From positions 1,261,535 through 1,296,137 of the forward strand of contig NC_057746.1 in NCBI RefSeq assembly GCF_004010195.1: 34,603 nt of DNA. Direction: 5' to 3'. The stretch is from Chiloscyllium plagiosum. Its lineage: Eukaryota. The notes under the pieces were generated by a model. That model saw only the letters and a list, made by a program, of their open reading frames with translations. It did not search any database and was not told the DNA's origin. Made by a program: the position numbers and the translations under genes. Of the stretch, positions 3,593 to 33,029 are shown one piece after another. Each line of letters opens with the position of its first letter. Within the stretch, counting starts at the first letter, position 1.

Positions 3593-4076
3593 NNNNNNNN
3601 NNNNNNNNNNNNNNNNNNNNNNNNNNNNNNNNNNNNNNNNNNNNNNNNNNNNNNNNNNNNNNNNNNNNNNNNNNNNNNNNNNNNNNNNNNNNNNNNNNNN
3701 NNNNNNNNNNNNNNNNNNNNNNNNNNNNNNNNNNNNNNNNNNNNNNNNNNNNNNNNNNNNNNNNNNNNNNNNNNNNNNNNNNNNNNNNNNNNNNNNNNNN
3801 NNNNNNNNNNNNNNNNNNNNNNNNNNNNNNNNNNNNNNNNNNNNNNNNNNNNNNNNNNNNNNNNNNNNNNNNNNNNNNNNNNNNNNNNNNNNNNNNNNNN
3901 NNNNNNNNNNNNNNNNNNNNNNNNNNNNNNNNNNNNNNNNNNNNNNNNNNNNNNNNNNNNNNNNNNNNNNNNNNNNNNNNNNNNNNNNNNNNNNNNNNNN
4001 NNNNNNNNNNNNNNNNNNNNNNNNNNNNNNNNNNNNNNNNNNNNNNNNNNNNNNNNNNNNNNNNNNNNNNNNNNNN
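3593..4076. other. Assembly gap (484 N)
   Basis: N run. Confidence 1.
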
Positions 4077-5594: not shown

Positions 5595-7051
5595 CCTTTT
5601 AACAATCCCAAAGGGTACCTAATCTCCCACGGGTCCATATAGAAAGTAGTATCCCACCTGTCCAAAATGTTACCCTGGCTATCTAAACAAATTCATAAAG
5701 TTCAGACCTACATTTACCAGGTCTAATCTGCACACATTGTGTTTTCCACAAATCCGTCAACAGAATTAGAAACAAATGGATGAAAAACTTATATATTCAT
5801 GCAGTTGCCTCCATGAAACACACATGCTAGAACTCTGCCCTATCTCTATTCCCACCCCAATGAAAATATTAAGACAGTGTTAAGGCAGGACTTTCAGTGT
5901 TCACCCGCTTCCACAGTATTGGCTGTGACAAAAAGATTTCCTCTTGTTTACCATACAGCAGTTCATGCTGTACAGCGCGAACTAATTATTCTGCTGTTCC
6001 CCACAATATTGCACCAGAATTCTTGGATGGACTATGCGCTCTATATTTGTGACAAATCCAGTTGGAAGACCTGGCAAGAAATGTGGAGCTGGGGAAAGCT
6101 CAAATGGAATACCACTTTGAGAATGATTGTCATTCCTCCAGAGATCCAGGTCATTAACTCTCCATTAAATATTTGCCTCTTGTGGACTTTTGGCCCCAAG
6201 TGAAACATTTGCATTCTATACATTGAATTTTATCTGCCATTTGTCAATATAATTCCCACCTTTAATCAAATACTCCTTTCTGTATCTTACCCTGTTCAGG
6301 TTTGGAGTTGACCACCCTTTTAACAATCCCACAGGATACCTAATCTCCCTCAAATGTATCCCGGGTCCATACAGAAAGTAGTATCCCACCTGTCCAAAAT
6401 GTTACCCTGGCTATCTAAACAAATTCATAAAGTTCAGACCTATATTTGTCAGGTCTAATCTGCACACATTGTGTTTTCCACAAATCCGTCAACAGAATTA
6501 GATACAAATGGAGGCAACAGCTTATATATTCATGCAGTTGCCTCCACGAAACACACATGCTAGAACTCTGCCCTATCTCTATTCCCACCTCAATGAAAAT
6601 ATTAAGCCAGTGTTAAGGCAGGACTTTCAGTGTTCACCCGCTTCCACAGTATTGGCTGTGTCAAAAAGATTTTCTCTTGTTTACCATACAGCATTTCATG
6701 CTGTACAGCGAGAACTAATTATTCTGCCGTTCCCCTAATCCACAATATTGCACCAGAATTCTTGAATGGACTATGCGCTCTATATTTGTGACAAATCCAG
6801 GAAGACCTGGCAAGAAATGTGGAGCTGGGGAAAGCTCAAATGGAATAGCACTTTGAGAATGATTGTCATTCCTCCAGAGATCCAGGTCATTAACTCTCCA
6901 TTAAATATTTGCCTCTTGTGGACTTTTGGCCCCAAGTGAAACATTTGCATTCTATACATTGAATTTTATCTGCCATTTGTCAATATAATTCCCACCTTTA
7001 ATCAAATACTCCTTTCTGTATCTTACCCTGTTCAGGTTTGGAGTTGACCAC
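5595..7051 (+). repeat. Direct tandem duplication, two units (5595-6315, 6316-7051)
   Basis: Both units start ccttttaacaatccca and end gttcaggtttggagttgaccac. They differ by scattered substitutions and small indels. Confidence 0.95.
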
Positions 7052-7250
7052 ACGCATCAGCATTGTACCATCTGCAGATTTAATCATGTGCTGTGACTCC
7101 TGGCCCAGATCACTTGTGAAGATATTTAAAAAAGAGATGCCAGAATAATCTCTGTGGAATCTCATTGATAACATTTTGCCAGAACAATATTAATCGCTGT
7201 ATCATCACCCTTTGGATTCCATTGATCAAACAACTATTACATCATTTAAC
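6935..7250 (-). mobile_element. Highly decayed CR1 RT fragment (its start is also duplicated at ~6200-6315)
   Basis: tgcattctatacattgaattttatctgccatttgtc is the reverse complement of DKWQIKFNV..C; ccatctgcagattt is the reverse complement of KSADG (FADD-like). Confidence 0.5.
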
Positions 7251-7295
7251 AACACCAGTGAGTGAGATTAACACAGCTCCCTTGTTCTGACAAAA

Positions 7296-7372
7296 TAGGA
7301 AAGATTCACACTTACATTCCGTCTTTTGTGACCACATAACTCCCAAAGTGCTTTATAGCAGTTGAAATAATT
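7296..7372 (-). mobile_element. Ancient DeuSINE-type (SacSINE1-like) 3' tail fragment
   Basis: cccaaagtgctttatagc resembles the reverse complement of the tail at 27360-27465. Confidence 0.45.
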
Positions 7373-7875
7373 TTATTGGTCAAACTATCAGGCTTGAAGC
7401 AAAACACACTTTATTCACACACTTTAATTAAAAACAACAAAAGAAAGAAGAAATTGGAATAACATAACTCTATTGGAAACTGTAACAGAAAGTAAGATTA
7501 TTTTACTACTAAACGGTAACTGTTCCAATATAGTAACATTCCATGAACACACCCATGAGAAAAGCAAATTCAGAAAAATAGATTGTGTCAAAGCAACTCT
7601 CGCAGCAGGAGAGAACCCCCAGCTCTTTGCTGTAACAGAGAAAGGGAAAAAAAACAGCTTCTACATCCAGCTTCAAGACCACAGCAGCAACTACTACTGA
7701 AAAACTAAAACTAAAAATCCTGATTCTGTGGGAGCTTGCCACCCATTCAGGCTGCTTCTATTATACCTATTTTTTGAAAAGACCCCAAGGCCTCACAAGC
7801 TGTATATATTATGAGCTTTCAATAGAAAGTTCACCACCTCTGACTTTGAAAAAAGACTCAGGACAAAATACCTCT
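7373..7875 (-). mobile_element. Partial LTR-like repeat related to 20437-21055
   Basis: Shares the tcaaac...aagcaaaaca...tttatt block with the solo LTR. Termini not resolved. Confidence 0.45.
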
Positions 7876-7914
7876 GAGAGTCATAGAGTCATCACACTGG
7901 TGCAGCCAGCATTT

Positions 7915-8603
7915 TTAATTGTTAAAAGGGCTATAATAGCAGACCAATTAGAGATATATAACATGATAAAGCATCGTCAGTATGGCTTCACAAAGGGTGA
8001 ATCATGCCAAACAAATTTACTAGAATTCTCTGAGGACATAATAAGCAGGATATAAAGGAAAAGCAGTGATTCAGAAGGCATTTGACAAGGTACTTTAGGC
8101 GACTTAACAATATCAGAACCTAAGGTATTGGATAGCATATGAGCATGGTCAGAAGATTGACTAACTAATAAAAGATAGAGAGTTTGGAGAAAGGGAGCAT
8201 TTTGAGGATGGCAAGCTATAAGTAATGGTATATCACAGGGATCAGTGCTGGGGCCATCATTATTCACAATAATTATTAATAACTTGGGTGAGGAAAGTAA
8301 TAGCCAAGTTTGCAAATTACATAAAAAAAGGTGGAAAGGATGACCAAAGAGTCTGCAGGGTTAAGCGTGTGGGTAAAAAAATGGTAAACACAATACAATG
8401 CTGGAAAATGAGATTATGCAACTTTGCAGGAAAAAGAGAGGAATTGACTATTAGTTAAATAGAGAAAAACTACAGAAAGATACAAAACGGGGATTTAGGA
8501 GTCCATAATCACAAAAAGCTAGCATCCAAGTTCAGCAGGTAATAGGCAAGGCAAATGGAATCCTGGCCTTTATTTTGAAGGGAATAGAATGAAATATAAT
8601 GAG
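7915..8603 (+). mobile_element. Decayed CR1 RT fragment
   Basis: QYGFTKGESCQTNLLEFSEDI, then G(I)SQGSVLGPSLFTIIINNL, then KANGILAFI. Confidence 0.85.
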
Positions 8604-8604
8604 G

Positions 8605-11318
8605 ACTTCCCTTTCACCCAGGTAAGACATAATTCCTCTCCTGGGAGTTAGCCCATGGTGCCGCCTGCACCTCCTGTACAGCGGCCAGACCTGTCTGGAG
8701 TCCTGGGGAATACAGCAGACCCAATCACTGCTGCAGTTCCACAGGCCTCCGGGGATTAGCTGGAGCCCCATGCCGGCCGCAGTGCAGGCACCACAACTGA
8801 AGATTCTACTGGGTCATAGAGTGGTGGAGGGGAGGAAGGTATTATACTCACTCCTCCCTCCCAGACTGTTTTGCCAGGTGCCTTGGTTCTGGGGAGGACC
8901 TTTTCCCTGAGGAGCCGGGCGTCCCGGTGTCGGGAGAGGAGCGGGGCCCCAGGCCTCTGCTGCCCGATGACCCGACCTCTGGGCACTTCAGGAAGTGGTG
9001 CATTGTGGAAGTTACCACCTGTGTCCCTGGGGGTGGGGTCACGGGGGGTTTGAGGGTAGTTGGTGGTGCCAGACCAGCCCCCACTCTCTCGGTGGGGGGT
9101 GGGCCGGTGACCAAGGGTGACTGTCTGTAGGAGGGTTCCGGCTCAGTGGTGGGCACTAGGGATGACGCGGAGTCTGTCTCCAGCGAGGGTTTAGACTCCC
9201 CAGTGCCCTCCACTGAGCTCCCCCTTCATGCCCCTTGGGGAACTCCAGGACCTTATCGGGGCACACTTGGTCATTCTGATAGATCTGGCTGGCTCGCGAC
9301 CACTGGGAAGATTTTGGGCTGGTCTGCTGGACCACCCAGGTGTATAATGATACAGACCCGGGCTGGCCCAGAACGATGGGCGGCGGTTCAGGATGTTCCT
9401 TGATATACTCACAGGGAGGGTGAGGGACATGTATAGCCCTCCCAGTAAATGTTTATAAGACAGTATCACTGAAGGTCGTTGCACAATGCTACTGACATGA
9501 ACACGACCACAACCAGCCTCAACATCAACGGCAGCAGGGAGTTGCAGTGCAGATTCCAAAACTTCTTGGTTCTTTGGGACAGGAAGTATGCGGTGTGCTT
9601 CCTGCAAGAAACACACACTACCCAAGGAGACAAAGCCACCTGATTCCTGGAGTGGCAAGGGGGTTCTATACGAGCCACCTCACCCGCAAATCTGGCAGAG
9701 TGGCTATCTTGTTGGCCCCACATTTTCAGCCGGTGATCTTGGGGGTCAGGGAACGTGTGCCAGGTTCTTTGCTTCACCTGATGGTTTGGCTGAGGGGGCG
9801 CACGGCGCTTCATTTTGTGAACATCAACACACCCGTGGTTGGACTGAGGCAAACGCGCTTCTACGGAGAAGTGTCCGCTCATCTTGCCTCCTCGACAAAG
9901 GCTAGTGCATTGTCCTTGGGGGAAATTGTAACTGCGTCCTGGAGGACAGGGACCACAGCAGTGCCCAGTCTGGATTGGTGTCCGGGAGGAGGTTGGGGGA
10001 CTTGGTCAAGTCCTTCGATCTGGTGGACGTCTGGCAGAATCTCCATCCCGACTCCATTGCCTTCACCATCATGAGGCCTGGAGTCAGAGCCTCCAGAATC
10101 GACCACCTGTACATTTTGCGGGCATACGCCTCCTGTTTTCCGACGGTCTCCACGTGCACAGCCCATTACCTGGTGTGGGCGGAGGTCCTACCATTTGGCA
10201 CCCACCTTGGGTCCACATACTGGCACTTTAACAACCTGCTGTTGGAGGACGAGCGCTTCCAGGGCTCATTTTGTCGGTTCTGGGTCAGCTGGAGAAGGAA
10301 GCGGGGAAGCTTCCCCTCCCTGGGTGGGACATGGGCAAGGCTCACATCCACATTTTATTTGTCAGGAGTACACTAGGGGGTTGACAAAGAGGCGGAAATC
10401 ACGATCGAGGAGTTGGAGATGGAGGTGTTCTGCCTGATGGGGACCCGGCCCTGCGGGGGGGTATACGAAGCGAAGAAGGCTGCGCTTCAAGACCTGCAGC
10501 TTGTTGGGTCCTGGGGCACATACATGAGGTCTCGGATCCGGCTCCTCCAGGACCTGGACTGCACCTCCCCCTTCTTCTACTCGCTGGAAAAAAGGTGCAG
10601 GACCCATCAGCACCTCCTTGTGCCCGTCTCAGATCCGGGGGGTTTCAGGGCCCAAATTCGCTCCTATTACATGGCTCTATTCTCTCCAGATCCATCCAGT
10701 GAGGATGCTCACAGGGTTCTGTGGGAGGACTTGCCACAGCACAGCCCGGAGGATGCCATCACTTTTGAGGAGCTGACTGGCACCCTCGACTAGCTCTCGA
10801 AAGGCAAGTCCCTGGGGCTGGATGGGTTGACTGTGGAGCTTTTCAGGGCGTTCTGGGATATCCTAGGGAGTGACTATGCACAGGTCGTAAGGGAGTGCCT
10901 TAATGCCGGTGAGCTGCCCCTTTCTTGGCACAGGGTGGTCATCGTGCTGCTGCTGAAGAAGGGGAACCTTCATTCTCTGAAGAATTGGCATCCAGTCTCC
11001 CTCCTCGGCACAGGTTATAAAATTTTCGCCAGGGTGTTGTCTTCTTGTGCTGGCCCACATAATTCACCCAGACCAGTCCTACATGATGCTGGACCGGAGG
11101 GTACATGACAACGTCTATCTGGTCCAGGATCTGATCCATTTCTGTCAACGGGCTGGTCTGCCAAGCACCTTCCTATCCCTTGATCAAGTAAAGGTATTCG
11201 ACAGGGTCCATCACAAGTATCTGCTCGGGACTCTGTGGACATTTGGGTTTGAGATACAGTTTGCCGCCTGGATCTGACTTTTGTACACTGCCACAGAGTG
11301 TCTGGTTAAAGTTAATGG
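8605..11318 (+). mobile_element. Tx1-clade (L1 group) non-LTR retrotransposon: ORF1 remnant plus frameshifted ORF2 (APE endonuclease and RT)
   Basis: GC-rich. ORF2 starts ~9497 with SLNINGSR and LQETH, followed by SRIDHLY, YWHFNNLLLED, KNWHPVSLL, LSLDQVKVFDRVHHKYL. Multiple stops and frameshifts. Confidence 0.88.
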
Positions 11319-11319: not shown

Positions 11320-12053
11320 TAACAGAGCTGGGCTGGGATGAGAGGTGGCAAATGGAGCTTAATGTGGAAAAGTGTGAGTTGATTCATTTTGGAAGGAGTA
11401 ATTGGAATACAGAGTCCTGGGCTAGTGGTAAGATTCTTAGTTGTGGGGATAAGCAGAGAGATCTCAGTGTCCATATTCATAGATCCCTGAAGTTTGCCAC
11501 TCAGGTTGATAGGATTGTTAAGAAGGCCTACGATGTGTTAGCTTTTACTGGTAGAGGGATTGAGCTTCTGAGCTACAAGGTCATGCTGCAGCTGCATAAA
11601 ACTCTGGTGCAGCTCCACTTGGAGTATTGTGTACAGTTCTGGTCACCGCAATGTGGGAAGGATGTGGAAGCATTGGAAAGGGTGCAGACATGATTTACCA
11701 GGATGTTGCCTGTTATAGAGGGAAGGTCTTATGTGGAAAGGCTGAGGGACTTGAGGCTGTTTTCGTTAGAGAGAAGAAGGTTGAGAAGTGACTTAATGGA
11801 AACATACAAGATAATCAGAGGATTCGATAGCGTGGTCAGTGAGAACCTTTTTCCTCGGATGGTAATGGTTAGCATGAGAGGATATAGCTTTAAACTGAGG
11901 GGTGATAGATATAGAACAGATGTCAGATGTCTTTACTCAGACAGTTAGCAAGGGCGTGGAATGCCCTGCCTGCAATCATAGTAGACTCACCATCTTTAAG
12001 GGCATTTAACTGGTCATTGGGTAGGCATGAGGACAAGAATGGAATAGTGTAGA
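11320..12053 (+). mobile_element. 5'-truncated CR1 inserted in the Tx1 element (5' part)
   Basis: ORFs 11352-11693 and 11703-11948 (WQMELNVEKC, HLEYCVQFWSP, LFSLERRRLR). The 3' UTR is interrupted at gtgtag(a) and resumes at 19215. Confidence 0.92.
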
Positions 12054-12688
12054 TGAGGATCTGAAATATGAAATCAGGAACAACCATTTAATACATGCTC
12101 TTACTAACTAGGCAGCAATAAAATGGCTTCTTAATGCAAATAACATAAAATGGCTTCTAGGCCGCAAATTGACAATTCTGCTTAAAGCTGCTAAAAGCTG
12201 CATTCCTGAACTAACCATAGTGTGCCTCAACAAAGATTAGCAGATAATTCTTCCCTTATAGCATAGAAATAACTTGAATAGATCAGACATTCCTAGCCAT
12301 CCTAAATGTACTTGCAAGTGCAGGTGCAAAGAATAGTTTCGCGAGATAGGGGTGCTTGGATGTAGAAAGTAAGGTTGGTTCCCAGGAAGTATCATTGTGC
12401 TAAGTTGCTGTCAATAAAGTCATTTATTAAAATTGATTGGTAATTGTCTGAATGTGCTCTGCATGATGTCCTGGACTTCTCTCAAAGAATGTATAAAAAT
12501 GTCTTTCTCTTAAGCCATGTGCGCAGTTTCACCAAGGAACATTGAAGTGTTTAATCTCTGTGTTACTGGACAACCTGCGTCTAGCCGAGATTGAATAAAG
12601 TCTGAAATCTTACAGAACCAGACCGAATTGCCAGTGTTTATTGACCAAACGCAGAACTGAGAGACCCCGCTGGAGGTCCAGATCTTCA
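12054..12688 (+). repeat. ERV 5' LTR
   Basis: TG...CA ends, TATAAAA at 12492, AATAAA at 12594. U3 is near-identical to 18656-19163. Confidence 0.92.
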
Positions 12689-16225: not shown

Positions 16226-16252
16226 CCAAACCTCTGGTCCCATTGCATCCCC

Positions 16253-16314
16253 AGCAAAACCCGGATAGAGACAGCATAAGGACAGGTATGCCAAACCTGG
16301 GTAAGGTACAGAAA
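16253..16314 (-). repeat. 62-bp inverted copy of 17322-17383
   Basis: Reverse complement matches with 2 mismatches. Confidence 0.93.
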
Positions 16315-16315
16315 C

Positions 16316-16490
16316 GAGCTGAAAATGTGTTGCTGGAAAAGCGCAGCAGGTCAGGCAGCATCCAAGGAACAGGAGAATCAACGTTTCGGGCATAAGCCCT
16401 TCTTTCGGGCTTATGCCCGAAACGTCGATTCTCCTGTTCCCTAGATGCTGCCTGACCTGCTGCGCTTCTCCAGCAACACATTTCCATCTC
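16316..16490. mobile_element. Two PLE-derived mini-elements head-to-head, forming a ~85-bp-arm palindrome
   Basis: 16316-16403 is the reverse complement of 16407-16490. Both match the element at 25642-25765. Confidence 0.9.
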
Positions 16491-17105
16491 ATATAAACAT
16501 TGCCTGATCGGGGTTTGTTTGTTACTAGTTCACTGGCCACTTGGGTGTTTTCCTGACGGTGGAAAAAAAGAAAAAAATATTTTTGGCAATTTAAAAACAC
16601 AGTAGATTCAGAGTCTCCATAGATCAGGGGACTGGCTGCAAGCTACTGTGCACAAGTAAATAAAGGGGGACTTGGTCTCGGGATACTAGCATCTGTGCAG
16701 TTATTTCACAAAAAAAGACACATGGAGAAAGAAGCACAGTTAAGGGATAACTAAAATAATAAAACTAGTCAGTGGTTTTCATGATGCCTTGTTCCACAGG
16801 AACAGATGATGGCTTCTTGGTTGACTTTCTGAAGACATCATCAAAGCCACCTTTCCAGTTCACTCTGAAGTAATACTTAATTTCTATTATCTGAACTTCC
16901 AATAGCTGACAATGGGACGTTAGGCAGGAAGCTTTCAAATCTTCATGCTCTAACATCAATAGCCTAACTGTTTCTCACAAAAGCACAGTCCAAACCTGTG
17001 ACCTCTCCCTGTCAGATTGACCATCTCCCTGTAAGGTCCCAGGTACCATTCAAAACACTTACTTGGCAGAGAGACTGAGCAGGAAATAAAAATCAAGTCT
17101 GAGTC
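16489..17105 (+). repeat. ~617-bp direct duplicate of 19527-20146 (DNA downstream of the ERV)
   Basis: Both run tcatataaacattgcc...aatcaagtctgagtc and share an identical 64-aa minus-strand ORF. Confidence 0.95.
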
Positions 17106-17380
17106 GGCTGGAGGCCGCGGCGTGTCCTTTGTAACAGAGTATAAACTATTTCTTCCTTGCGCAAGTGTGTACAAAATACACATAATCAACTAAAATAGGC
17201 AGCAGCAAAGAAGGAACACAAATTTGTCCAAAGGAGTTCACCCACATTTTGGTTTGAGTGTTAAGGGAGTACCCTATTTGAGGCCATAGTTTGTGCTCTT
17301 CAGCAGGGGCTTTCCCTGTGATTTCTGTACCTTACCCAGGTCTGGCATACCTGTCCTTATACTGTCTCTATCCGGGTTTT

Positions 17381-17495
17381 GCTTATGCCCGAAACATCAA
17401 TTCTCCTGTTCCCTGGACGCTGCCTGACCTGCTGCGCTGTTCCAGCAACACATTTTCAGCTCTGATCTCCACCATCTGCAGACCTCACTTTCTCC
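17381..17495 (+). mobile_element. PLE-derived mini-element (5'-truncated within the hammerhead)
   Basis: gcttatgcccgaaac...ctgatctccaccatctgcagacctcactttctcc. Confidence 0.88.
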
Positions 17496-17496
17496 C

Positions 17497-18087
17497 GTTT
17501 GCATGGATTACCCATGTTCAGAGAAGTCACAAAGGCAGGCCTGCTTCTTATTGGGAAGCCCCCTCCATTATCTGTACTAAACCCAGTTCTGCAGGAATTA
17601 TTAGCCGTCAAAACCAAAATTATCTCATTTGCGGCCTCACCCTCTTGGGCAACGAGACAGCCTTGGCCTTAGCAGGAAAGAAGGACGTGTTTTCAAAATT
17701 ATGCCGATTTTCACAACAAAACCGGTACGCCCTCAACCACCTACTCGTAAAAGAGGGTGGGGTTTGCGCCATTGTTAAAGGCAAATGCATGATGGGGGTC
17801 ACTGACCTCATTGAGAATATTACCAGGCATGTAGATAACACCCACACCTTTATCAGTCAAATGACAGAAGGCACTGGATGGGGAGATTGGGATTTGGCTC
17901 ATGGTACAATTGGTTGATAAATCTGGTATTTATTGGTATTGTTTTAGTTTGTCTCTTTGTTCATATTGCTATTGTTTATTGTATTATTGCTAAACTAATA
18001 ACTGCTGTTGACAGCATCGATTCCCCCCAAAAAATGCTTATTCTGTGTGAGAGACGATTTTGGTACAAACAATTGAGATGTGCATGA
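17497..18087 (+). pseudogene. env: Retroviral env TM remnant (gamma-type)
   Basis: Immunosuppressive-domain motif QQNRYALNHLLVKEGGVC, CX6C (CAIVKGKC), heptad region, and, after a frameshift near 17890, the hydrophobic TM WLINLVFIGIVLVCLFVHIAIVYCII. Confidence 0.88.
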
Positions 18088-18106
18088 CCCCAAAGTCTAA
18101 GGGGAA

Positions 18107-18494
18107 TAGAGCCATAGGGGTAGGGTAAAACATGCTTCTCTATAATAAAGGACGAGACATCTGCTGCTACGGATTGATAAGACCACTCACATAGACAGAG
18201 TAGAAAAACAAGTCCTTGACTGATAAGACTACAGGGGAGAAAAACAACTCGGGAAACGTCTGCTGCAGACTTTGTGATAAGGGATGGAAAAATACTGACT
18301 GTTTAGAATGTGAACCTCGTGACTCTTTAGAGCTATAGAGGGGAGGGACTTGTCCTGTATTTAATCAGAAACATTGTTAGCCTCGGGGCGCCTTTTTCTC
18401 AGAAGGGTGCCCAACTCTGCAGACTTGCTAATAAAACTTTGTTTTCCTGAATTTGTCTAGAGCGATTATTGAGAAGCGATTTTCGTTTCTAACA
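18107..18494 (+). repeat. LTR of a second, unrelated ERV directly after env
   Basis: PPT aaggggaa at 18099-18106, three TGATAAG motifs, tatttaa at ~18358, AATAAA at 18430, and a tctaaca end (start taga is consistent with an eroded tgttaga). No similarity to the 12054/18656 LTRs. Confidence 0.7.
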
Positions 18495-18655
18495 TTCTGC
18501 AACCAAATGAAGTTGAGGAGGTGCAATTGCCTACCCCTACTTCCTCCCTGGAGGAGAAGGAAGTATAGCAGTCTCTGGTATCCATTTGATTAAACTGATC
18601 TAATCTATGCCCTCCCATCCTATGGCATGGTCATGGAATGACCAAAGCGAGGAGA

Positions 18656-19214
18656 TGAGGATCTGAAATCTGAATACAGGCTGTTGTCAGGAACAACCAT
18701 TTAATAGATGCTCTTACTAACATAGGCAGCAATAAAATGGCTTCTTAATGCAAATAACATAAAATGGCTTCTAGGCTGCAAATTGACAATTCTGCTTAAA
18801 GCTGCTAAAAGCTGCATTCCTGAACTAACCATAGTGTACCTCAACAAAGATTAGCAGATAATTCTTCCCTTATAGCATAGAAATAACTAGACTAGATCAG
18901 ACATTCCTAACCATCCTAAATGTACTTGCAAGTGCAGGTGCAAAGAATAGTTTCGCGAGATAGGGGTGCTTGGGATGTAGAAAGTAAGGTTGGTTCCCAG
19001 GAAGTATCATTGTGCTAAGTTGCTGTCAATAAAGTCATTTATTAAAATTGATTGGTAATTGTCTGAATGTGCTCTGCATGATGTCCTGGACTTCTCTCAA
19101 AGAATGTATAAAAATGTCTTTGTCTTAAGCCATGTGCGCAGTTTTACCAAGGAACACGGAAGTCCAATCGCGTAACCAAGACACGAGCCCCCCATCCCCG
19201 CGTCCAGATCTTCA
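18656..19214 (+). repeat. ERV 3' LTR
   Basis: Follows a PPT. U3 is near-identical to the 5' LTR, R/U5 is divergent and shorter, and it ends cagatcttca. Confidence 0.92.
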
Positions 19215-19290
19215 TAGGTTAGATGGGCTTCAGATTGGTTTCACGCAACATCCAGGGTCAAAGCTTCCGTACTGTGCTGTAATGTTGTAC
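19215..19290 (+). mobile_element. Remainder of the CR1 3' UTR split by the ERV
   Basis: taggttagatgggcttcagattgg...gtactgtgctgtaatgtt continues the UTR ending at 12053. Confidence 0.75.
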
Positions 19291-19292
19291 GA

Positions 19293-19617
19293 TCCCCAGT
19301 AGAGGGCACTCTACTTGGGAGTGCTCCCTCTTTCCCTTGGGGCTCTGGGGTGGAGGGTGTCTGCAGCTATGTTTGGGCTCAGGCGTCCTTGGAGAAGGAG
19401 CAAACGCTGTATGCCAGTGCCCTCAATGCTTTTCAGGAAAGGTGGGTATTGCAGAGGTGGAGTGCTTTATTACCCTCACAAACTCTATTTTGATGTAATC
19501 CCTATTTCCCCCCACCTTTACTTACTTCATATAAACATTGCCCCGATCGGTGTTTGTTTGTTACTAGTTCACTGGCCACTTGGGTGTTTTCCTGACGGTG
19601 GGAAGAAAAGTAAAAAA
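19293..19617 (+). mobile_element. Probable 3' end of the Tx1 element
   Basis: GC-rich segment encoding AQASLEKEQ..A..LNAFRK.W, similar to the Tx1 ORF2 C-terminus, then a 3' UTR ending in A-rich gaagaaaagtaaaaaa. Confidence 0.6.
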
Positions 19618-20436
19618 TATTTTTGGCAATTAAAAACACAGTAGATTCAGAGTCTCCTTAGATCAGGGGACTGACTGCAAGCTACTGTGCGCAAGTAAAT
19701 AAAGGGGGACTTGGTCTCTGGATACTAGCATCTGTGCAGTTATTTCACACAAAAAAAGACACATGGAGAAAGAAGCACAGTTAAGGGATAACTAAAATAA
19801 TAAAACTAGTCAGTGGTTTTCATGATGCCTTGTTCCACAGGAACAGATGATGGCTTCTTGGTTGACTTTCTGAAGACATCATCAAAGCCACCTTTCCAGT
19901 TCACTCTGAAGTAATACTTAATTTCTATTATCTGAACTTCCAATAGCTGACAATGGGACGTTAGGCAGGAAGCTTTCAAATCTTCATGCTCTAACATCAA
20001 TAGCCTAACTGTTTCTCACAAAAGCACAGTCCAAACCTGTGACCTCTCCCTGTCAGATTGACCATCTCCCTGTAAGGTCCCAGGTACCATTCAAAACACT
20101 TACTTGGCAGAGAGACTGAGCAGGAAATAAAAATCAAGTCTGAGTCTCAAGGCTTGCACACTGACCTGGGAGAGTGGAGTTGAAAGGAAGAGAGAGACAA
20201 AGAGGGAAAGAGAGGAGCCAATGTGGGAGGAGACTCAGGGATCAGAAACAATGAAAGAAATGTAAAATGAAACAAGAGATTAAAGGGTTTAAAAATAATT
20301 TAATGAAATAACTTGCACAGCAATATTTAATAGCACACAATTGCAAACTTTTAGCTGTAGATGAATTGAAAGGATATAAAACTGTTGGTTAATCAGCACA
20401 TGGGACTATTTCTTCTAGGAACTAACTTTTAGCTAG

Positions 20437-21332: not shown

Positions 21333-21832
21333 NNNNNNNNNNNNNNNNNNNNNNNNNNNNNNNNNNNNNNNNNNNNNNNNNNNNNNNNNNNNNNNNNNNN
21401 NNNNNNNNNNNNNNNNNNNNNNNNNNNNNNNNNNNNNNNNNNNNNNNNNNNNNNNNNNNNNNNNNNNNNNNNNNNNNNNNNNNNNNNNNNNNNNNNNNNN
21501 NNNNNNNNNNNNNNNNNNNNNNNNNNNNNNNNNNNNNNNNNNNNNNNNNNNNNNNNNNNNNNNNNNNNNNNNNNNNNNNNNNNNNNNNNNNNNNNNNNNN
21601 NNNNNNNNNNNNNNNNNNNNNNNNNNNNNNNNNNNNNNNNNNNNNNNNNNNNNNNNNNNNNNNNNNNNNNNNNNNNNNNNNNNNNNNNNNNNNNNNNNNN
21701 NNNNNNNNNNNNNNNNNNNNNNNNNNNNNNNNNNNNNNNNNNNNNNNNNNNNNNNNNNNNNNNNNNNNNNNNNNNNNNNNNNNNNNNNNNNNNNNNNNNN
21801 NNNNNNNNNNNNNNNNNNNNNNNNNNNNNNNN
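21333..21832. other. Assembly gap (500 N)
   Basis: N run. Confidence 1.
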
Positions 21833-21866
21833 GTGAAAGGGTTCAGAAAAGATTTATAAGTTTGAA

Positions 21867-21905
21867 AACACAAACTTTCGGAGCACTGCTCCTTCATCAG
21901 GTGTT
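21867..21905 (-). ncRNA. Minimal type-I hammerhead ribozyme motif (PLE)
   Basis: Minus strand reads AACAC CUGAUGA A GGAGC-AGU-GCUCC GAAA GUUU GUGUU: 5-bp stem I, 5-bp stem II and an intact core. Confidence 0.72.
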
Positions 21906-21962: not shown

Positions 21963-22277
21963 AGATTACTCTATGATTAGATTACTTAGAGTGTGGAAAC
22001 AGGCCCTTCAGCCCAACAAGTCCACACCAACCCGCAACCCACCCAGACCCATTCCCCTACATTTACTCCTTCACCTAACACCACGGGCAATTTAGCATGG
22101 CCAATTCACCTAACCTGCACATATTTTTTGGACTGTGGGAGGAAACCAGAGCACCCAGAGGAAACCCACGCAGACACGGGGAGAACGTGCAAACTCCACA
22201 CAGTCAGTCGCCTGAGGTGGGAATTGAACCCGGGTCTCTGGCGCTGTGAGGCAGCAGTGCTAACCACTGTGCCACCC
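21963..22277 (-). mobile_element. HE1-type tRNA-derived shark SINE
   Basis: Minus-strand head gggtggcacagtggttagcactgctgcctcacagcgcc...gggttcaattccc (A and B boxes), CR1-like tail with taatc repeats. Confidence 0.88.
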
Positions 22278-22282
22278 ATAAA

Positions 22283-22629
22283 ATTAGAATTAGAATCCCT
22301 GCAGTGTGAAAACAGGTCCTTTAGCCCAACAAGTCCACATCAACCATCTGAAGAATATTCCACCCAAACCCATTCCCCTACCTTATTACTCAACATTTAC
22401 ACCTGGCTTATACACATAACCTACACATTCCTGAACACTGTGGACAATTTAGCATGGCTAATTCACCTAACCTGCACATCTTTGTGACTGTGAGAGGAAA
22501 CCGGAGCGAACCCATGCAGACACGGGGAGAACGTGCAAACTCCACACAGACAATTGCCTGAGGCTAGAATCGAACCAGGGTCCCTGGCCCTGTGAGGCAG
22601 CAGTGCTAACCACTGAGCCACCGTGCCAC
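22283..22629 (-). mobile_element. HE1-type SINE (second, tandem copy)
   Basis: Same tRNA-like head (ggcacggtggctcagtggttagc; ggttcgattc) and body. Confidence 0.88.
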
Positions 22630-22731: not shown

Positions 22732-24094
22732 TTAGAGCCTATTCGACTTAACTTGGAGTCAGACTGATTTTATCCTAAAGTAGGATTTATAAAATGCCAC
22801 ATTGATTGACTGTCTATAGGTTGTGGGTTTTTTTAAACAAAATAAAATGTATTCGCAAATACAAATCTGCAAATTCACCCCATAGATGTGTGTGTGTGGT
22901 GTATAGTGCAATGGGGTCACCTGCAGTGTGATATGAACCCAAGGTTCCAGTTGAGGCTGTCCTCATGGGTACCAAACTTGGCTATCTGCTCAGCCACTGT
23001 GCGTTCTTGTGTATTCTGAAGTCCTCCTTGGAGGTTGGTTACCCAAAGATCCTGAGGCCAAATGTCTCTGATCGCTGAAGTGTTCTCCGACTGTCTGTTG
23101 ATTGTTGTGTGGTGTCCATTCATCCATTGCCGTAGCCTCTGCTAGGTCTCACCAATGTACCATGCCTCAGGGCATCCTTGCCTGCAGTGTATGAGATAGA
23201 CAATGTTGGCTGAGTCACATGAGTACCTGCCACATACATGGTGGGAGGTGTCCCCACGCATAATGATGGTATCCATGTCAACACCATGACACATCTTGCA
23301 GCGTTCACCATGACAAGGTTGTATGGTATTGTGATCAATGTTGTCCTGAAGGCTGGGCAGTTTGCTGCAACCAATAATCTGTTTAAGGATTGGTAGTTGT
23401 TTAAAAGTGAGAAGTGGAGGCCTAAGGAAGGTCTTGGCAAGGTGCTCATCCTCATTGATAATGTGTTGCAGGCTGCGATGAATATGGCGTAGTTTCTCCA
23501 CTCCCAGGAACTACTGGACAGTAAAGTGTACCCTGTCGATTGCAGCTCATGTCTGTCTCCTGAGGAGGTCATTATGGTTCCTTGCTGTGGCACATCGGAA
23601 CTGGCGGTCGATGAGTTGGGCATCGTACCCTGTTCTTGTGAGGGCATCCCTAAGTACTTCCAGGTGCCTGTCACATTCCTCCTCATCTGAGCAGATCCGG
23701 TGTATGCGTAGGGCTTGTCCATAGGGGATGGCTATTTTAATATGTTTTGGGTGGAAGCTGGAAAAGTGTAGCATTGTGAGGTTGTCTATGGGTTTGCGGT
23801 AGAGTGTGGTCCTGAGGTCTCCATCCTTGCTGGAGATGCATGTGTCCAAGAATGAGACAGATAGTAGAGAATAGTCCATGGTGAGTTTGATGGTGGGATG
23901 AAACTTGTTGATGTCACTGTGTAGTTTTATCAGTGACTCCTCGCCATGGGTCCAGAGGAAGAAAATGTCGTCAGTGTACCTGGTGTATAATGTTGGTTGG
24001 AGGTCCTGTGCAGCAAAGAAATCTTGTTTGAACTCACTCAAACACACCCTCACTCTCACTCAGACACACACTCTCTTACTCGCTCTCCCCCAAC

Positions 24095-24223
24095 NNNNNN
24101 NNNNNNNNNNNNNNNNNNNNNNNNNNNNNNNNNNNNNNNNNNNNNNNNNNNNNNNNNNNNNNNNNNNNNNNNNNNNNNNNNNNNNNNNNNNNNNNNNNNN
24201 NNNNNNNNNNNNNNNNNNNNNNN
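24095..24223. other. Assembly gap (129 N) flanked by CA/CT low-complexity sequence
   Basis: N run. Confidence 1.
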
Positions 24224-24489: not shown

Positions 24490-24585
24490 AAATGCTGGAA
24501 ATCTAAAATGCAAACAGAAAATGCTGAAAATTCTCAGCAGGTCAGGTAGCATAAGAAACAAAGTTACATTTCAAGTCAATGTTTC
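24490..24585 (-). mobile_element. Decayed PLE-terminus-derived short repeat
   Basis: atgctggaaatct...gaaaatgctg...ctcagcaggtcaggtagcat is similar to 25660-25720. Confidence 0.55.
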
Positions 24586-25295: not shown

Positions 25296-25410
25296 TAAAT
25301 TTCTCCCTTACCTGGTGATCTCCTATCCATCAGGGAACTGATCATTTTCCACATGCTACAGAATATCAATTGTTTAGGGTGTAGGTTTGCTCGCTGAGCT
25401 GTAGGTTTGA

Positions 25411-25457
25411 TATCCAGACATTTCACTACCTGGCTAGGTGACATCATCAGTGGTGAC
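25411..25457 (-). ncRNA. Hammerhead ribozyme motif (left inverted pseudo-LTR)
   Basis: Minus strand reads CCA CUGAUGA U GUCACCU-AGCC-AGGUAGU GAAA UGUC UGG. The GUC triplet is retained. Confidence 0.65.
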
Positions 25458-25641
25458 CTCCAAGTGAAGCGAAGCTGTTGTCTCCTAATTTCTATTTGTA
25501 TCTTTTTCCTGGATGGAGTTCCTGAGGTTTGTGATGATGTCATTTCCTGTTCGTTTTCTGAGGGGTTGATAAATGGCATCTAGATCTATGTGTTTGTTTA
25601 TGGCATTGTGGTTGGAGTGCCAGGCCTCTAGGAATTCACTG

Positions 25642-25765
25642 AGGAGAAAGTGAGGTCTGCAGATGCTGGAGATCAGAGCTGAAAATGTGTTGCTGGAAAA
25701 GTGCAGCAGGTCAGGCAGCATCCAGGGAACAGGAGAATCGACGTTTCGGGCACAAGCCCTTCTTC
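25642..25765 (-). mobile_element. ~125-nt non-autonomous PLE-derived element with hammerhead core and 12-bp TSD
   Basis: aggaattcactg is repeated at 25630-25641 and 25766-25777. The element is absent from the other arm (~26600). Minus strand starts (C)CUGAAGA A GGGC-UUGU-GCCC GAAA CGUC GAUUC. Confidence 0.88.
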
Positions 25766-26764
25766 AGGAATTCACTGGCATGTCTTTGCTTAGCCTGTCC
25801 CAGGATAGATGTGTTGTCCCAGTCGAAAGGATGGATTTTTTTCATTCGTGTGTAGGGCTACGAAGGAGAGAGGGTCGTGTCTTCACAGGCATAAAGTTCA
25901 CCAAGGAGGAAGAAACCGACAACAAACTCACATTCCTGGACGTCACAGTCGAAAGAAAGGACAACGGAGAACTACAAACCTGCGTATACAGAAAACCGAC
26001 AAACACTGACCAAATACTTAACTACACCAGCAACCACCCCAACACACACAAACAAAGCTGTATCAGAACATTATTCCAACGAGCCACCACACGCTGCAGC
26101 ACAGACGAACTTCGGAAAACAGAGGAGAACCACCTATACAACGTATTCAAGAAGAACGGATCCTCAAAAACTACAGTGTGCAGATTCCTCAAAAACAAAC
26201 TACGACAAGCAGACCAAACACAGCCAGAAACCCTAACCATCTTACCATACATCAAACAAGTCTCAGAAATGACAGCCAGACTACTAAGACCCCTCAGAAT
26301 CCTAATAGCACACAAACCCACCAACATTCTCAAACAAAAACTAACAAACTTAAAAGACCCAGTACAACCCATGGACAAAACCAACGTCATCTACAAAATT
26401 CCATGCAAGGACTGCCACAAACACTACGTAGGACAAACAGGAAGAAAGTTAGCCACCACGATACACGAACACCAGCGAGCCACAAAAAGACACGACCCTC
26501 TCTCGCTCGTAGCCCTACAAACGGATGAAAAAAACCCACCATTTTGACTGGGACAACACATCTATCCTGGGACAGGCTAAGCAAAGACATGCCAGAGAAT
26601 TCCTAGAGGCCTGGCACTCCAACCTCAACACCATAAACAAACACATAGATCTAGATACCTCAGAAAACAAACAGGAAATGACATCACCACAAAACCCCAG
26701 GAACCCCATCCAGGAGAAAGATATAAATAGAAAGCAGGAGACAACAGCTTTGCTTCACTTGGAG

Positions 26765-26813
26765 GTCGCCACTGATGATGTTACCTAGCCAGGTAATGAA
26801 ATGCCTGGATATC
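26765..26813 (+). ncRNA. Hammerhead ribozyme motif (right pseudo-LTR), cleavage triplet mutated
   Basis: CCA CUGAUGA U GUUACCU-AGCC-AGGUAAU GAAA UGCC UGG. 7-bp stem II; GCC replaces GUC. Confidence 0.62.
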
Positions 26814-26965
26814 AAACCTACAGCTCAGTGAGCAAACCTACACCCCAAATCTCAACCTGAGCTACAAACCTTCACAAACCTTGCAATATCAATTGTATTT
26901 TGTTTATCTTGCTATATCATATTGGTTAATTGTACCTGTTGCTGTGTCCTGTCTCTCCCACACAG

Positions 26966-27247
26966 TTGCCCCTCAGATTGCCATGTATCCTGAAGAGCCT
27001 GTCGAATGGGGACAGCCCAACACATTGATCTGTTTGGCTGATGGATTCTACCCTCCACACATCACCATGACATGGAAGATGAACAGTGAGCCAGTGACTG
27101 ACAGAGTTAACATTACGGAGTTCTATATAAAACAGGATTATTCCTATCAGAGATACACATACCTGAGCTTCATCCCGAATCCTGGAGACATGTATTCCTG
27201 TCATGTGGAACATAAGGGTCTGCAAGAATCAGCCACTGTATTCTGGG
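26966..27247 (+). CDS. MHC class II alpha chain, alpha-2 (Ig C1-set) domain exon (exon 3)
   Basis: Pyrimidine-rich acceptor tgtctctcccacacAG (26964-65) and donor GTcagt (27248). 282 nt, phase 1-1, open frame: (V)APQIAMYPEEPVEWGQPNTLICLADGFYPPHITMTW...NITEFY...YLSFIPNPGDMYSCHVEHKGL...VFW. Has the class II alpha hallmarks G.PNTLIC, FYPP and YSC.VEH..L, and resembles nurse-shark class II alpha as I recall it. Confidence 0.95.
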
Positions 27248-27319
27248 GTCAGTATCAATTTGGTTATTTGGAAGCTGAGATTAGAACTGATTTATAACAA
27301 AATGCTGTATAATATCCAA

Positions 27320-28707: not shown

Positions 28708-29025
28708 TAGATTAGATTACTTACAGTGTGGAAACAGGCCCTTGGGCCCAACAAGTCCACACCAATCCACCGAAGCGAACCCCGCCCAGACCCATTCTCC
28801 TACATTTACCCCTGCACCTAACACTATGGGCAATTTTAGCGTGGCCAATTCACCTAACCTGCACATTTTTGGACTGTGGGAGGAAACCGGAGCACCCGGA
28901 GGACACGCAGACACACGCAGACACGGGGAGAACGTGCAAACTCCACATAGTCAGTCGCCTGAGGCGGGAATTGAACCCGGGTCTCTGGCGCTGTGAGGCA
29001 GCAGTGCTAACCACTGTGCCACCCA
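28708..29025 (-). mobile_element. HE1-type SINE inserted into the CR1 3' end
   Basis: Near-identical to 21963-22277. TSD ctcat at 28703-28707 and 29026-29030. Confidence 0.9.
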
Positions 29026-30792
29026 CTCATCTTTGTACTAAATGGCCTACCCCTTATTTTTAAGCTGTGTCCTCTGGTTCAGGACCCTCCCATCAGCAGA
29101 AACATGTTTCCTGCCTCCAGAGTGTCCAATCCTTTAATTATCTTATACGTCTCAATCAGATCCCCTCTCAGTCTCCTAAACTCAAGGGTATACAAGCCCA
29201 GTCGCTCCAATCTTTCACCGTAAGATAGTCCTGCCATTCCAGGAATTGACCTCGTGAACCTACGCTGCACTCCCTCAATAGCCAGAACGTCTTTCCTCAA
29301 ATTTGGAGACCAGAATTGCACACAATATTCCAGGTGCGGTCTCACCAGGGCCCTGTACAGCTGCAGAAGAACCTCTTTGCTTCTATACTCAATCCCTCTT
29401 GTTATGAAGGCCAGCATGCTATTAGCTTACTTCAGTACATGCTGTATCTGCATGCTTGCCTTCATTGACTGGTGTACAAGAGCACCCAGATCTCTTTGTA
29501 CTGCCCCTTTACCTAACTTGACTCCATTTAGGTAGTAATCTGCCTTCCTGTTCTTGCCACCAAAGTGGATAACCATACATTTGTCCACATTAAACTGCAT
29601 CTGCCATGCATCTGTCCACTCACCTAACCTGTCCAGGTCACCCTGTAATCTCCTAACATCCTCCTCATATTTCACCCTGCCACCCAGCTTTGTATCATCA
29701 GTAAATTTGCTAATGTTACTATTAATACCATCTTCTATATCATTAACATATATTGTAAAAAGCTGCGGTCCCAGCACTGATCCCTGCGGTACCCCACTGG
29801 TCACCGCCTGCTATTCCAAAAGGGAGCCGTTTATCACTACTCTTTGTTTCCTGTCAGCTAACCAACATTCAATCCTCGTCCGTACTTTGCCCCCAATACC
29901 ATGCACCCTAATTTTGCTCACTAACCTCCTATGTGAGACTTTATCAAAGGCTTTCTGAAAGTCCAGGTACAATACATCCACTGGATCTCCCTTGTCCATC
30001 TTCAGAGTTACATCCTCAAAAAATTCCAGAAGATTACTCAAGCATGATTTCCCCTTCATAAATCCATGCTGACTCTGACCAGTCCTGTTACTGCTATCCA
30101 GATGTGTCGTAATTTCATCCTTTACAATTGACTCCAGCATCTTTCCCACCACTGAGGTCAGACTAACTGGTCTATAATTCTCTGTTTTCTCTCTCCCTCC
30201 TTCCTTAAAAAGTGGGACAACATTAGCCACCGTCCAAGCCGCAGGAACTGATCCTGATTCTATCGAACTCTGGAAAATAATCACCAACGCATCCACAATT
30301 TCTCGAGCCACCTCCTTCAGTACTCTGGGATGTAGACCATCAGGCCCTGGGGACTTATCAGCTTTCAGACCTAACAGTCTCTCCAACACCAATTCCTGGC
30401 AAATATAAATTCCCTTCAGTTCAGGTCCTTCAGCCACTGTTACCTCAGGGAGATTGCTTGTGTGTTCCCTAGTGAAGACAGACCTGAAGTACCAATTCAA
30501 CTCTTCTGCCATTTCTTTGTACCCCGTAATAAATTTACCCGTTTCTGTCTTCAAGGGCCCAATTTTAGTCTTAACCATTTTTTTCCCTTTCACATACCTA
30601 AAAAAGCTTTTACTATCCTCCTTTATATTTTTGGCCAGTTTACCTTCGTACCTCATTTTTTCTCTGCGTATTTCCTTCTTAGTAATCCTCTGCTGTTCTT
30701 TAAAAGCTTCCCAGTCCTCCATTTTCCCACTTATCTTTGCTATGTTATACTTTTTCTCTTTTAACTTTATATGTTTCTTAACTTCCCTCATC

Positions 30793-31036
30793 NNNNNNNN
30801 NNNNNNNNNNNNNNNNNNNNNNNNNNNNNNNNNNNNNNNNNNNNNNNNNNNNNNNNNNNNNNNNNNNNNNNNNNNNNNNNNNNNNNNNNNNNNNNNNNNN
30901 NNNNNNNNNNNNNNNNNNNNNNNNNNNNNNNNNNNNNNNNNNNNNNNNNNNNNNNNNNNNNNNNNNNNNNNNNNNNNNNNNNNNNNNNNNNNNNNNNNNN
31001 NNNNNNNNNNNNNNNNNNNNNNNNNNNNNNNNNNNN
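30793..31036. other. Assembly gap (244 N) with overlapping flanks
   Basis: 30587-30792 is repeated at 31037-31243. Confidence 0.95.
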
Positions 31037-33029
31037 CCTTTCACATACCTAAAAAAGCTTTTACTATCCTCCTTTATATTTTTGGCCAGTTTACCTTCGT
31101 ACCTCATTTTTTCTCTGCGTATTTCCTTCTTAGTAATCCTCTGCTGTTCTTTAAAAGCTTCCCAGTCCTCCATTTTCCCACTTATCTTTGCTATGTTATA
31201 CTTTTTCTCTTTTGACTTTATCTGTTTCTTAACTTCCCTCGTCAGCCACGGCCACCCCTCCCTCCTCATAGGATCTTTATTCCTTTTTGGAATGAACTGA
31301 TCCTGCATGTTCTGCATTATACCCAGAAATACCTGCCATTGTTGTTCCACGGTCATCCCTGCTAGGGTATTGCACCATTGAACTTTGGCCAGCTCCTCCC
31401 TCATAGCTCCATAGGTCCCCTTATTCAACTGAAATATTGTCACTTCCGATTCTACCCTCTCCCTTTCAAATTGCAGATTAAAGCTTATTGTATTGTGGTC
31501 ACTACCTCCTAATAGCTCCTTTACTTCGAGGTCCCTGATCAATTCTGGTTTGTTACACAATACCAGATCTAGAATTGCCTTCTCCCTGGTCGGCTCCATC
31601 ACAAGCTTTTCTAAGAATCCATCTCGGAGGCACTCCACAATCTCCCTTTCTTGGGGTCCAGTACCATTCTGATCCTCCCAGTCTATCTGCATGTTGAAAT
31701 CCCCCATAACAACTGTAGTAACATCTTTGTACAGGCCAATTTCAGCTCCTGATTCAACTTACATCCGACATCCAGACTACTGTTTGAGGGCCTGTAGATA
31801 ACTCCCAAGAGGGTTTTTTTACCCTTAGAAGTTCTCAGCTCTATCCATACTGACTCTACATCCCCTGATTCTAGGTCACCCCGCACAAGGGACTGAATAT
31901 CATCCCTTACCAACAAGGCCACAAGGCTTACCAACAAGAGCCTTCTTCCAAGTTCTCTGAAGTCCCGCTGTAGAATGTCCCTCCTCTTCTTCCCGACGTC
32001 ATTTGTGCCGACATGCACCACCACTTCTGACACTTCACCTTCGCCCTTGAGGATTTCCTGCACTCTGTCTGTGATGTCCTTAATCCTGGCACCAGGAAGG
32101 CAATACACCATCCTCAAATCCCGCCTGTTGCCGCAGAAACCCCTTTCAGTCCCTCTCACTATGGAGTCCCCTATTACCACAGCTCTGTGTGATGTCTGAC
32201 TCCTCATCGTCTTCTCTATTCTGCTCCCTTCTGGTATGGTCGGTGTAATAACCTCGCTGAAGATCCTGTCCAGAAAGATCTTATTCTCTCGGATGAGCCG
32301 AAGGTCCTCGAGTTCTTTCTTCAGTGCTGCGATACGTTCTGTCAGTAGCTGAATGTGCGCTCACTTTCCACAGATATACGAGCCAGATACACCAGAGTCG
32401 TTGACCTCCCATATCATGCACGTAGCACACTGAACGAGCTGGGCAGTCATGTCTTCACCCTCTTCAACTGTGGCGTAATCACTTCACTCAACCTCCTTGC
32501 CGAAGACTCCTGAGCTAAAGACTCTCTCTTCTCTCAACAGGAACTTCCCTGGACTCTTTTTGGGGCAAGTCTGTGGACTTTAAAGTTAGGTTAGAGGAAG
32601 AGGAAGAGGGTGGGAGGGAGGGCCTACTCTGTAGGACCTGGAGTCTAGAACACACCCACTCAAATAACATATGGAATTCAGTTCAGAGAAGTGCAAGGTT
32701 ATGTATTTTGGAAGGGTAAATTAATCAAGGGAATTGAGTGTGGTAGAAGAAGGAAGACCTTGGAGGTCATGTCCACAGATCCCTGAAGGTACAGCTCAGA
32801 TGGTAAAGAAAGCAAATGGGATATTATCCTTCACTAGGTGAGATACTGAATACTGCAATGTAATGCTGGAATTATACCAGACACTGGTTAGACCACAGCT
32901 GGAGTTGTATGTACAGTTTTGGTCACCACATTACAGGAAAGACATAATTGTTCTAAGGACAGCACAGAAGAGACTCACAAATTTTACAATAGAGACTTAA
33001 AAATTGAAGCTATGAGAAATGAGTGTATT

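Follow-up and report, generated by a model that had tools for sequence, protein, structure and literature searches.

The window, that is the whole stretch of 34,603 nt analysed here, contains a 124-nt insert in one arm of a Penelope-like element (PLE), sister copies of this insert and remnants of coding PLEs. The insert is called the stub, or copy A where it is set beside its sister copies B, C and D, and the features needed for the argument are as follows (positions in the window, strand, identity and basis).

25642 to 25765, minus strand: the 124-nt stub, a PLE terminal module of hammerhead core, about 65 nt downstream and 33-nt tail (sequence comparison)
25740 to 25767, minus strand: minimal hammerhead core with conserved box, extra A at 25760, 4-bp stem II, GAAA and palindromic ACGU (sequence, fold and the features given in PMC4209133)
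25643 to 25675, minus strand: optional 33-nt tail, present also at 17381 and 4825 and absent from the 16316/16407 pair
25630 to 25641, no strand: target-site duplication (TSD), copy at the element's 3' end (comparison; empty-site joint in four of four runs)
25766 to 25777, no strand: TSD, copy at the element's 5' end (same comparison and runs, and fold)
25373 to 26884, plus strand: host, a 5'-truncated Penelope/Poseidon-type PLE with inverted left arm at 25373-25883 (comparison, motifs)
16316 to 16404, minus strand: copy B, 95.5% alike, without tail, starting at core A6, left half of a head-to-head pair (comparison, fold alignment)
16407 to 16490, plus strand: copy C, 92.9% alike, without tail, starting at stem II, right half of the same pair (comparison)
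17381 to 17495, plus strand: copy D, 93.9% alike, with tail, starting inside stem II, core damaged (comparison)
4077 to 4954, plus strand: Neptune-type coding PLE remnant with GIY-YIG domain and CX2-5CxxC linker, frameshifted, ending in the 4825-4954 module (motifs, tblastn)
3373 to 3589, minus strand: inverted arm of that remnant, with a decayed hammerhead at 3373-3414 (comparison)

The stub (GC content 52%) is flanked by an exact 12-bp direct repeat (25630-25641 and 25766-25777), and the other arm of the host carries this target once, at 26593-26604, with 11 of 12 letters identical. Among the 32,348 N-free intervals of 124 nt in the window, an exact flanking repeat was found at the insert only. 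Four public runs from two species, one of RNA (raw reads, about 2% of them read) and three of DNA (contigs), were aligned to positions 25331-25930, and all four contained the empty form as a joint from 25629 to 25766 that skips 136 letters, with 12 letters fitting both sides. The stub is a real, recent insertion; the sequence-only reading of this DNA, which had described a young 124-nt insert with a 12-bp TSD in one PLE arm only, is thus confirmed by the exact repeat, the other arm and the runs. No junction-bridging piece at the insert was among the best 24 of 220,367 pieces, and the unique left flank of the insert had a depth of 0 in two of the three DNA runs. A listing of RNA sequences that carry the locus gave none. 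Both strands of the duplicated target bear an ATT motif. Moreover, 25766-25771 also match the upstream sequence of the stub's own family, a 6-nt junction homology of which the copies at 4825 and 3414 each share five letters, and alignments reach 25771 in all four runs. Since these last six letters of the TSD match the family, the event can be counted as 124 nt with a 12-bp TSD or as 130 nt with a 6-bp TSD, and the shared letters point to a 5' join that may have been guided by homology.

The same reading had stated that the insert has no tRNA head and no poly(A), which agrees with the present searches: ARAGORN detected 0 tRNAs in 25642-25765, Rfam returned nothing at the gathering score, with hammerhead families absent among the eight sub-threshold matches listed, and the insert contains no poly(A). 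A hammerhead motif without helix III would not be expected to score in Rfam. The idea that the stub encodes the start of an open reading frame was unsupported, its 40-residue frame having matched no protein, and an intron reading of its pyrimidine-rich end was dropped, the RNA run listing no splice joint inside the unit. Since the stub codes for no enzyme, the earlier statement that it moves on its own cannot be taken literally.

The window has several other features. Just downstream of the insert lies a C1-set immunoglobulin domain exon (26950-27294, plus strand, Pfam E 1e-23), which we take to resemble an MHC class II alpha-2 domain; if this label is right, the exon would be preceded by an intron that contains the nested Penelope elements. 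A repeat of about 320 bp, presumably resembling the elasmobranch HE1 SINE, is present three times, at 21975-22622 and 28710-29025. A tandem duplication of about 735 bp (94% alike) is found at 5595-7051, and a near-identical 207-bp repeat flanks an N gap at 30586-31243, where it is probably an assembly overlap. Other N gaps lie at 3593-4076, 21333-21832 and 24095-24223.

Two types of PLE are represented. The host has a 12-bp TSD of its own (25362-25373 and 26885-26896) and a 35-nt tail that is confined to the right arm. Near 26772 it carries a decayed hammerhead whose stem II has 7 bp and whose palindrome has mutated in each arm. The CX2-5CxxC linker is missing from its GIY-YIG region and, as this linker is described as absent from Penelope/Poseidon elements (PMC8557442), the host is assigned to that type, whereas the remnant at 4077-4954, which consists of the endonuclease part alone with an N gap upstream, possesses the linker and is therefore of Neptune type. 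As Pfam matched none of five PLE fragments, the clades were assigned from motifs and from tblastn with four eukaryote gene models. A Neptune-type stub is thereby nested inside a Poseidon-type element (25362-26896). The claimed match of the insert to the 3' terminus of the coding PLE at about 4825-4955 was found at 4825-4954, ending at the same last base, but with only 80% identity, which makes this module a member of a sister subfamily and not the parent of the stub; a coding parent of the exact subfamily was not found in the window. A second Neptune-type remnant lies at 23100-24059 (minus strand), and a third hammerhead family, with a 5-bp stem II and a decayed palindrome, at 21865-21900 (minus strand). 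The latter is probably the end of the former, SINE-like repeats lying between them.

The hammerhead motif of the stub is minimal. The conserved catalytic core letters are found at 25767-25761 and 25747-25740, and between them stem II pairs 25759-25756 with 25751-25748 over 4 bp, with computed pair probabilities of 0.94-1.0, a G10.1-C11.1 closing pair and one extra A (25760) before the stem. The palindromic ACGU occupies 25744-25741 and the triplet 25742-25740, helix III is absent, and the predicted cut site falls between 25740 and 25739. The 50-nt minimum-energy fold of this copy has hammerhead topology. Core, stem II, GAAA, ACGU and GUC were thus found as first described, but C3 and U4 were not part of the insert proper: together with the 5' strand of stem I they fall inside the duplicated target, on the 25766-25771 side. 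These two letters agree with the family sequence in the public runs. The ACGU self-duplex contributes -1.7 kcal/mol and is absent from the computed two-strand minimum-energy fold. Helix I consists of 2 bp, a U.U mismatch and 1 bp when built with family letters, which is destabilising by 2 kcal/mol, and with the letters of the target 5 bp and a bulge are possible in the stub. Judged by its letters, the stub carries an intact minimal, dimer-type hammerhead motif and is a candidate ribozyme.

The 3' ends of the family are of two kinds. The stub, copy D and the 4825-4954 module end at the same base, while B stops 33 nt and C 33-40 nt earlier. A sharp family 3' end at 25641-25644 with unrelated flanks was seen in all runs among the best 24 of 1,586 loose-end rows, the DNA runs contributing 1246 + 527 (X1, where counts are incomplete), 637 + 297 (X6) and 389 + 1033 + 406 (X12) contigs with an agreement of 0.33-0.34. 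Within the same best 24 rows, three of four runs displayed loose ends at 25682/25686, which fit the tail-less shorter end and stem partly from a second subfamily. PLEs are described as having an optional tail of 30-40 bp (PMC8557442), and this tail has been tied to two start sites of reverse transcription (PMC11167929). Beside the 3' end, at 25638-25643, the loose-end consensus shows the same three to four letters in all three DNA runs, and the target of the insert begins with these letters; the letters either belong to a parent that continues past the tail or reflect a preference for certain targets or a microhomology used in priming.

Sister copies of the stub at 16316, 16407 and 17381 had been reported before as closely similar, and these matches are confirmed by sequence comparison. 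However, they have incomplete cores and are not independent. The core is complete only in the copy at 25642-25765, B, C and D beginning within the core or stem II, and two of these three bear further core changes. B and C lie head to head as a single pair, separated by 2 nt, and an inverted 62-bp flank is common to B and D, so the alleged four copies correspond to two or three events, with B, C and D in one rearranged locus. Further family matches are found at 4825-4954 (80%), 3373-3414 (79%) and, as a weak copy that begins downstream of the ribozyme, at 24492-24552, of which the sequence comparison had matched 24522-24552. Pairwise, A, B, C and D differ by 4-7 letters in 76-83, and the stub shows about two differences from the letters shared by its neighbours. 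No TSD was found for D, the B/C pair or the 3373/4825 unit, the best repeats having 5, 4 and 7 letters. The rearranged locus is a retrovirus-like remnant (16250-20150) with direct repeats of 620 bp that are 98% alike (16489-17105 and 19527-20146), an envelope-like fragment (17600-17914; weak Pfam matches) and, at 18653-19163, a duplicate of 12051-12548; the 62-bp inverted duplication is tied to B and D, and stubs lie at the rearrangement junctions. The two 3' ends 33 nt apart, the head-to-head pair and the 80%-alike end on a Neptune-type remnant support the proposed descent from PLEs.

In the public runs, the insert exceeded the host PLE in summed depth by a factor of about 14-26 (from medians taken by hand), which is a relative depth and not a copy number and to which the 85% cut-off may have contributed by dropping more relatives of the host than of the insert. 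The stub family is very abundant in both species, in accordance with the high copy number suggested earlier, abundance being established in this relative sense. Pattern scans for relatives in metagenome contigs, viral contigs and prokaryote genomes yielded 0 loci in five of five scans.

The 5' ends of A, B, C and D correspond to 25765-25771, 25764, 25759 and 25757, respectively; they are spread over no more than 15 nt and lie 18-32 nt upstream of the predicted 25740/25739 cut. If truncation were exponential, clustering of this kind would have a probability of 0.03-0.15 with B, C and D counted as one event and of 0.001-0.02 with two; the sample is two or three events, so non-random 5' ends find suggestive support only. 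Self-cleavage as the process that set these ends was rejected, given how far upstream of the cut they lie. In all four runs, 25771 was the 5' loose end with the best support (best 24 of 1,586 rows), and its consensus opens in each run with nearly the same dozen upstream letters, a sequence that is missing from the stub and that, as derived from the reads, was not found in the window. This shared sequence implies that longer forms of the family exist. Over the 30 letters beyond 25771, the 423 RNA reads had an agreement of 0.52 and the DNA contigs one of 0.35-0.37. According to a simulation that guesses how the agreement figure is computed, roughly 20-40% of the RNA reads and no more than about 15% of the contigs would continue in one shared upstream sequence. 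It is therefore probable that many copies end shortly past the front edge of the ribozyme, although a mix of subfamilies would give a similar 5' agreement and contigs undercount collapsed repeats. The loose parts beyond 25771 had a median length of 67-153 letters in the DNA contigs as compared to 15-23 at a repeat-internal break. The best 15 of 136 joints comprised 11 skips across the insert and four strand changes, three of which occur at 25752 or 25770, at or beside stem II.

The most probable explanation, in our judgement, is that the stub is a PLE end module whose 5' edge reflects a preferred stop of the reverse transcriptase (RT) at the ribozyme front edge, and that it is likely a dead-end copy. 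By analogy to the PAc protein of the anole, a Poseidon-clade enzyme characterized in vitro and not one of Neptune type, the stub was likely made by the endonuclease and reverse transcriptase of such an element. PAc cuts at ATT, begins reverse transcription at two internal sites bounding the tail, and gives insertions whose length is determined by the template's 5' end (PMC11167929). Following this, we propose that the GIY-YIG endonuclease would cut at the ATT motif, and that RT would start within the RNA at one or other of two sites separated by 33 nt, so that copies would arise with and without tail. RT would then often halt at the hammerhead front edge, as the clustered ends in part indicate, and the 5' end would be joined via the six letters of target homology, which would leave the whole core in the stub. 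Ends of copies would not be fixed by self-cleavage, in line with the report that PAc ribozyme mutants insert normally, ribozyme cleavage being unnecessary (PMC11167929). The sequence-only reading had named PLE enzymes as the mobilising machinery, and the PLE-type 3' ends and the coding Neptune-type remnant with the same last base lend this proposal inferential support. The B/C pair, moreover, represents the usual inverted arrangement of PLEs.

The halt itself might come about in two ways. It could be a run-off on a transcript that begins at the front edge, from a start site in the pLTR, where PLE transcription start sites have been described (PMC2377424, PMC8557442), or RT could stall or switch template at the fold, for which the B/C pair and the three listed joints with a strand change at stem II may speak. 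That the stubs are run-off cDNAs, primed internally near the 5' end of the parent transcript so that their 5' edge maps the transcription start, is conceivable and somewhat less likely than its opposite. If they are, they would constitute genomic evidence for internal initiation in vivo; should the front edge be the transcript start, the very abundant stubs would put the internal-initiation model to the test in vivo and account for the frequency of solo minimal hammerheads. As a template, the stub may be a dead end: PAc requires RNA up to position 172 of the ORF, with RT start sites at 111-118 (PMC11167929), so that the binding stretch downstream would be missing from a stub that ends where RT starts. 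Against the preferred stop as the origin of the stub stand the missing coding parent of its subfamily, the only candidate in the window being 80% alike, and the DNA agreement of 0.35-0.37, by which most contigs lack 30 common upstream letters. This agreement fits many short copies, and it is also expected of a discrete short family or of a mix of subfamilies.

A discrete non-autonomous family of SINE-like behaviour, in which short sources made of ribozyme and PLE terminus have their own promoter in or near the module, use PLE enzymes in trans and let stubs beget stubs, is an unlikely alternative that nevertheless accounts for several observations: the excess depth of the insert over the host, the fact that three of four insertion units in the window are short (B/C counted as one), the 5'-edge contigs mostly without common upstream sequence, the small differences among A-D and the coding parent not found in the window. 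It is weakened by the longer forms with shared upstream sequence in all four runs, by four 5' ends that differ and have no single common base, and by the forms with and without tail and in head-to-head arrangement, which are PLE integration products; by analogy to PAc, the stub would furthermore lack a downstream binding stretch, and contig counts underestimate collapsed long copies. In rotifers, the ends (pLTR sequences) of a PLE alone are described as sufficient for mobilisation in trans (PMC3846280). If stubs do template themselves, they would form a SINE-like class with a hammerhead head and no Pol III head, copied in trans to very high number in cartilaginous fish. Random 5' truncation that ended at the hammerhead by chance, aided by the 6-nt target homology, appears still less likely. 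PLE insertions are described as highly 5'-truncated (PMC8557442; bioRxiv 10.64898/2026.07.22.740005), microhomology joins are known at their 5' ends (PMC3846280), the start of the weak 24492-24552 copy lies downstream of the ribozyme, and the window sample is small; yet four 5' ends within 15 nt, the low agreement just past 25771 despite long loose parts and the strand switches at or beside stem II speak against chance.

The remaining candidate, a non-LTR retrozyme whose monomer is excised by tandem hammerheads, circularised and reinserted solo, we regard as very improbable. Its appeal lies in the type I hammerhead motif, the pLTR-related sequence and the long TSD, and in the description of monomers scattered in vertebrate genomes with families in one chondrichthyan (bioRxiv 10.64898/2026.07.22.740005). 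One of 12 shown rows contained a tandem-like junction (run X12, 25752 back to 25643, with 32 letters between) in which an inverted piece of the ribozyme serves as spacer. However, TRF detected no tandem arrangement of the unit anywhere in the window, no head-to-tail joint was among the best 15 of 136, and no pile-up of molecule begins or ends was seen in the public runs. The RNA run, about 2% of which was read, is a poly(A) single-cell library, a type ill suited to the detection of small or circular RNAs; its listed joints included no back joint, and molecule ends did not pile up in it. The copies have a fixed 3' end in common and are not circularly permuted, the 5' strand of stem I lies outside the 124-mer, and the ribozyme belongs to the minimal PLE type, whereas described retrozymes have the canonical one (PMC7229834). 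As the tandem arrangement was found neither in the window nor in the joints shown, and the ends lie off the cleavage site, we do not file the stub as a non-LTR retrozyme, and the earlier label of a retrozyme-like system is not retained.

Among known systems, the closest is that of the minimal hammerheads in the pLTRs of metazoan PLEs, for which solo motifs of truncated elements are the common case (Cervera and De la Pena, 2014, PMC4209133). The stub resembles them in its core, in the extra base between positions 9 and 10.1, in the G10.1-C11.1 pair, in the palindromic 15.2-16.2, in the absence of helix III and in its dispersed single copies. Unlike them, its helix II has only 4 bp and its helix I is weak in the family-encoded form, as compared to 4-5 bp for helix I in the described motifs, and its abundance, known as relative depth only, appears far greater than the 2,000-9,000 motifs per genome given there (PMC4209133). 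For PLE motifs, single copies did not cleave and dimers cleaved weakly, and the accessible text names no cartilaginous fish among the hosts (PMC4209133). On sequence grounds, the stub is likely a member of this already described class of solo minimal hammerheads of truncated PLEs.

Furthermore, the stub shares with endonuclease-bearing (EN+) Neptune-type PLEs the 5' truncation, the optional tail of 30-40 bp, the head-to-head inverted copy, the TSD of variable length and a 5' join with microhomology (Craig et al., 2021, PMC8557442; Arkhipova et al., 2013, PMC3846280), and the linked remnant at 4077-4954 carries the CX2-5CxxC linker as described for the Neptune type (PMC8557442). It differs from described EN+ insertions in that its units measure just about 85-130 nt, with 5' ends near the ribozyme. 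Searches of the openly accessible literature found no paper on this family or on such a length class, and the supplement of the 2026 preprint may list the family. With PAc (Poseidon, Anolis carolinensis; Frangieh et al., 2024, PMC11167929) it has in common the ATT in the target, the two 3' ends bounding the tail and cleavage that is unneeded for insertion, and no RNA reads ended at the cut site; by contrast, the clade is another one, and the PAc ORF starts at stem II where the matching frame of the stub is closed.

Non-LTR retrozymes are by definition arranged in tandem, with two or more complete ribozymes, give unit-length linear and circular RNA and have a canonical type I hammerhead with helix III and a contact between loops 1 and 2 (Cervera and De la Pena, 2020, PMC7229834). 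A later preprint admits minimal motifs, derives animal retrozymes from PLE pLTRs and gives a mean of 363 bp for the families of the one chondrichthyan (Li, Clavereau and Pollet, 2026, bioRxiv 10.64898/2026.07.22.740005). Like retrozymes, the stub is non-coding, bears a type I hammerhead, is related to PLE pLTRs and presumably depends on PLEs (PMC7229834; bioRxiv 10.64898/2026.07.22.740005); unlike them, it is solo, has fixed PLE-type 3' ends and a minimal motif without helix III (PMC7229834).

SINEs have a Pol III head derived from tRNA, 5S or 7SL RNA and an A-rich or simple-repeat tail, and are discrete units amplified from their own sources. A classical SINE was ruled out by the ARAGORN and Rfam results given above and by the lack of an A-rich tail. 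The stub is thus best seen as a clean, young example of something already described, a solo minimal hammerhead on a truncated Penelope-like end, and its exact empty site, whole core and about two differences from its neighbours make it suitable for tests of dimer or protein-assisted cleavage.
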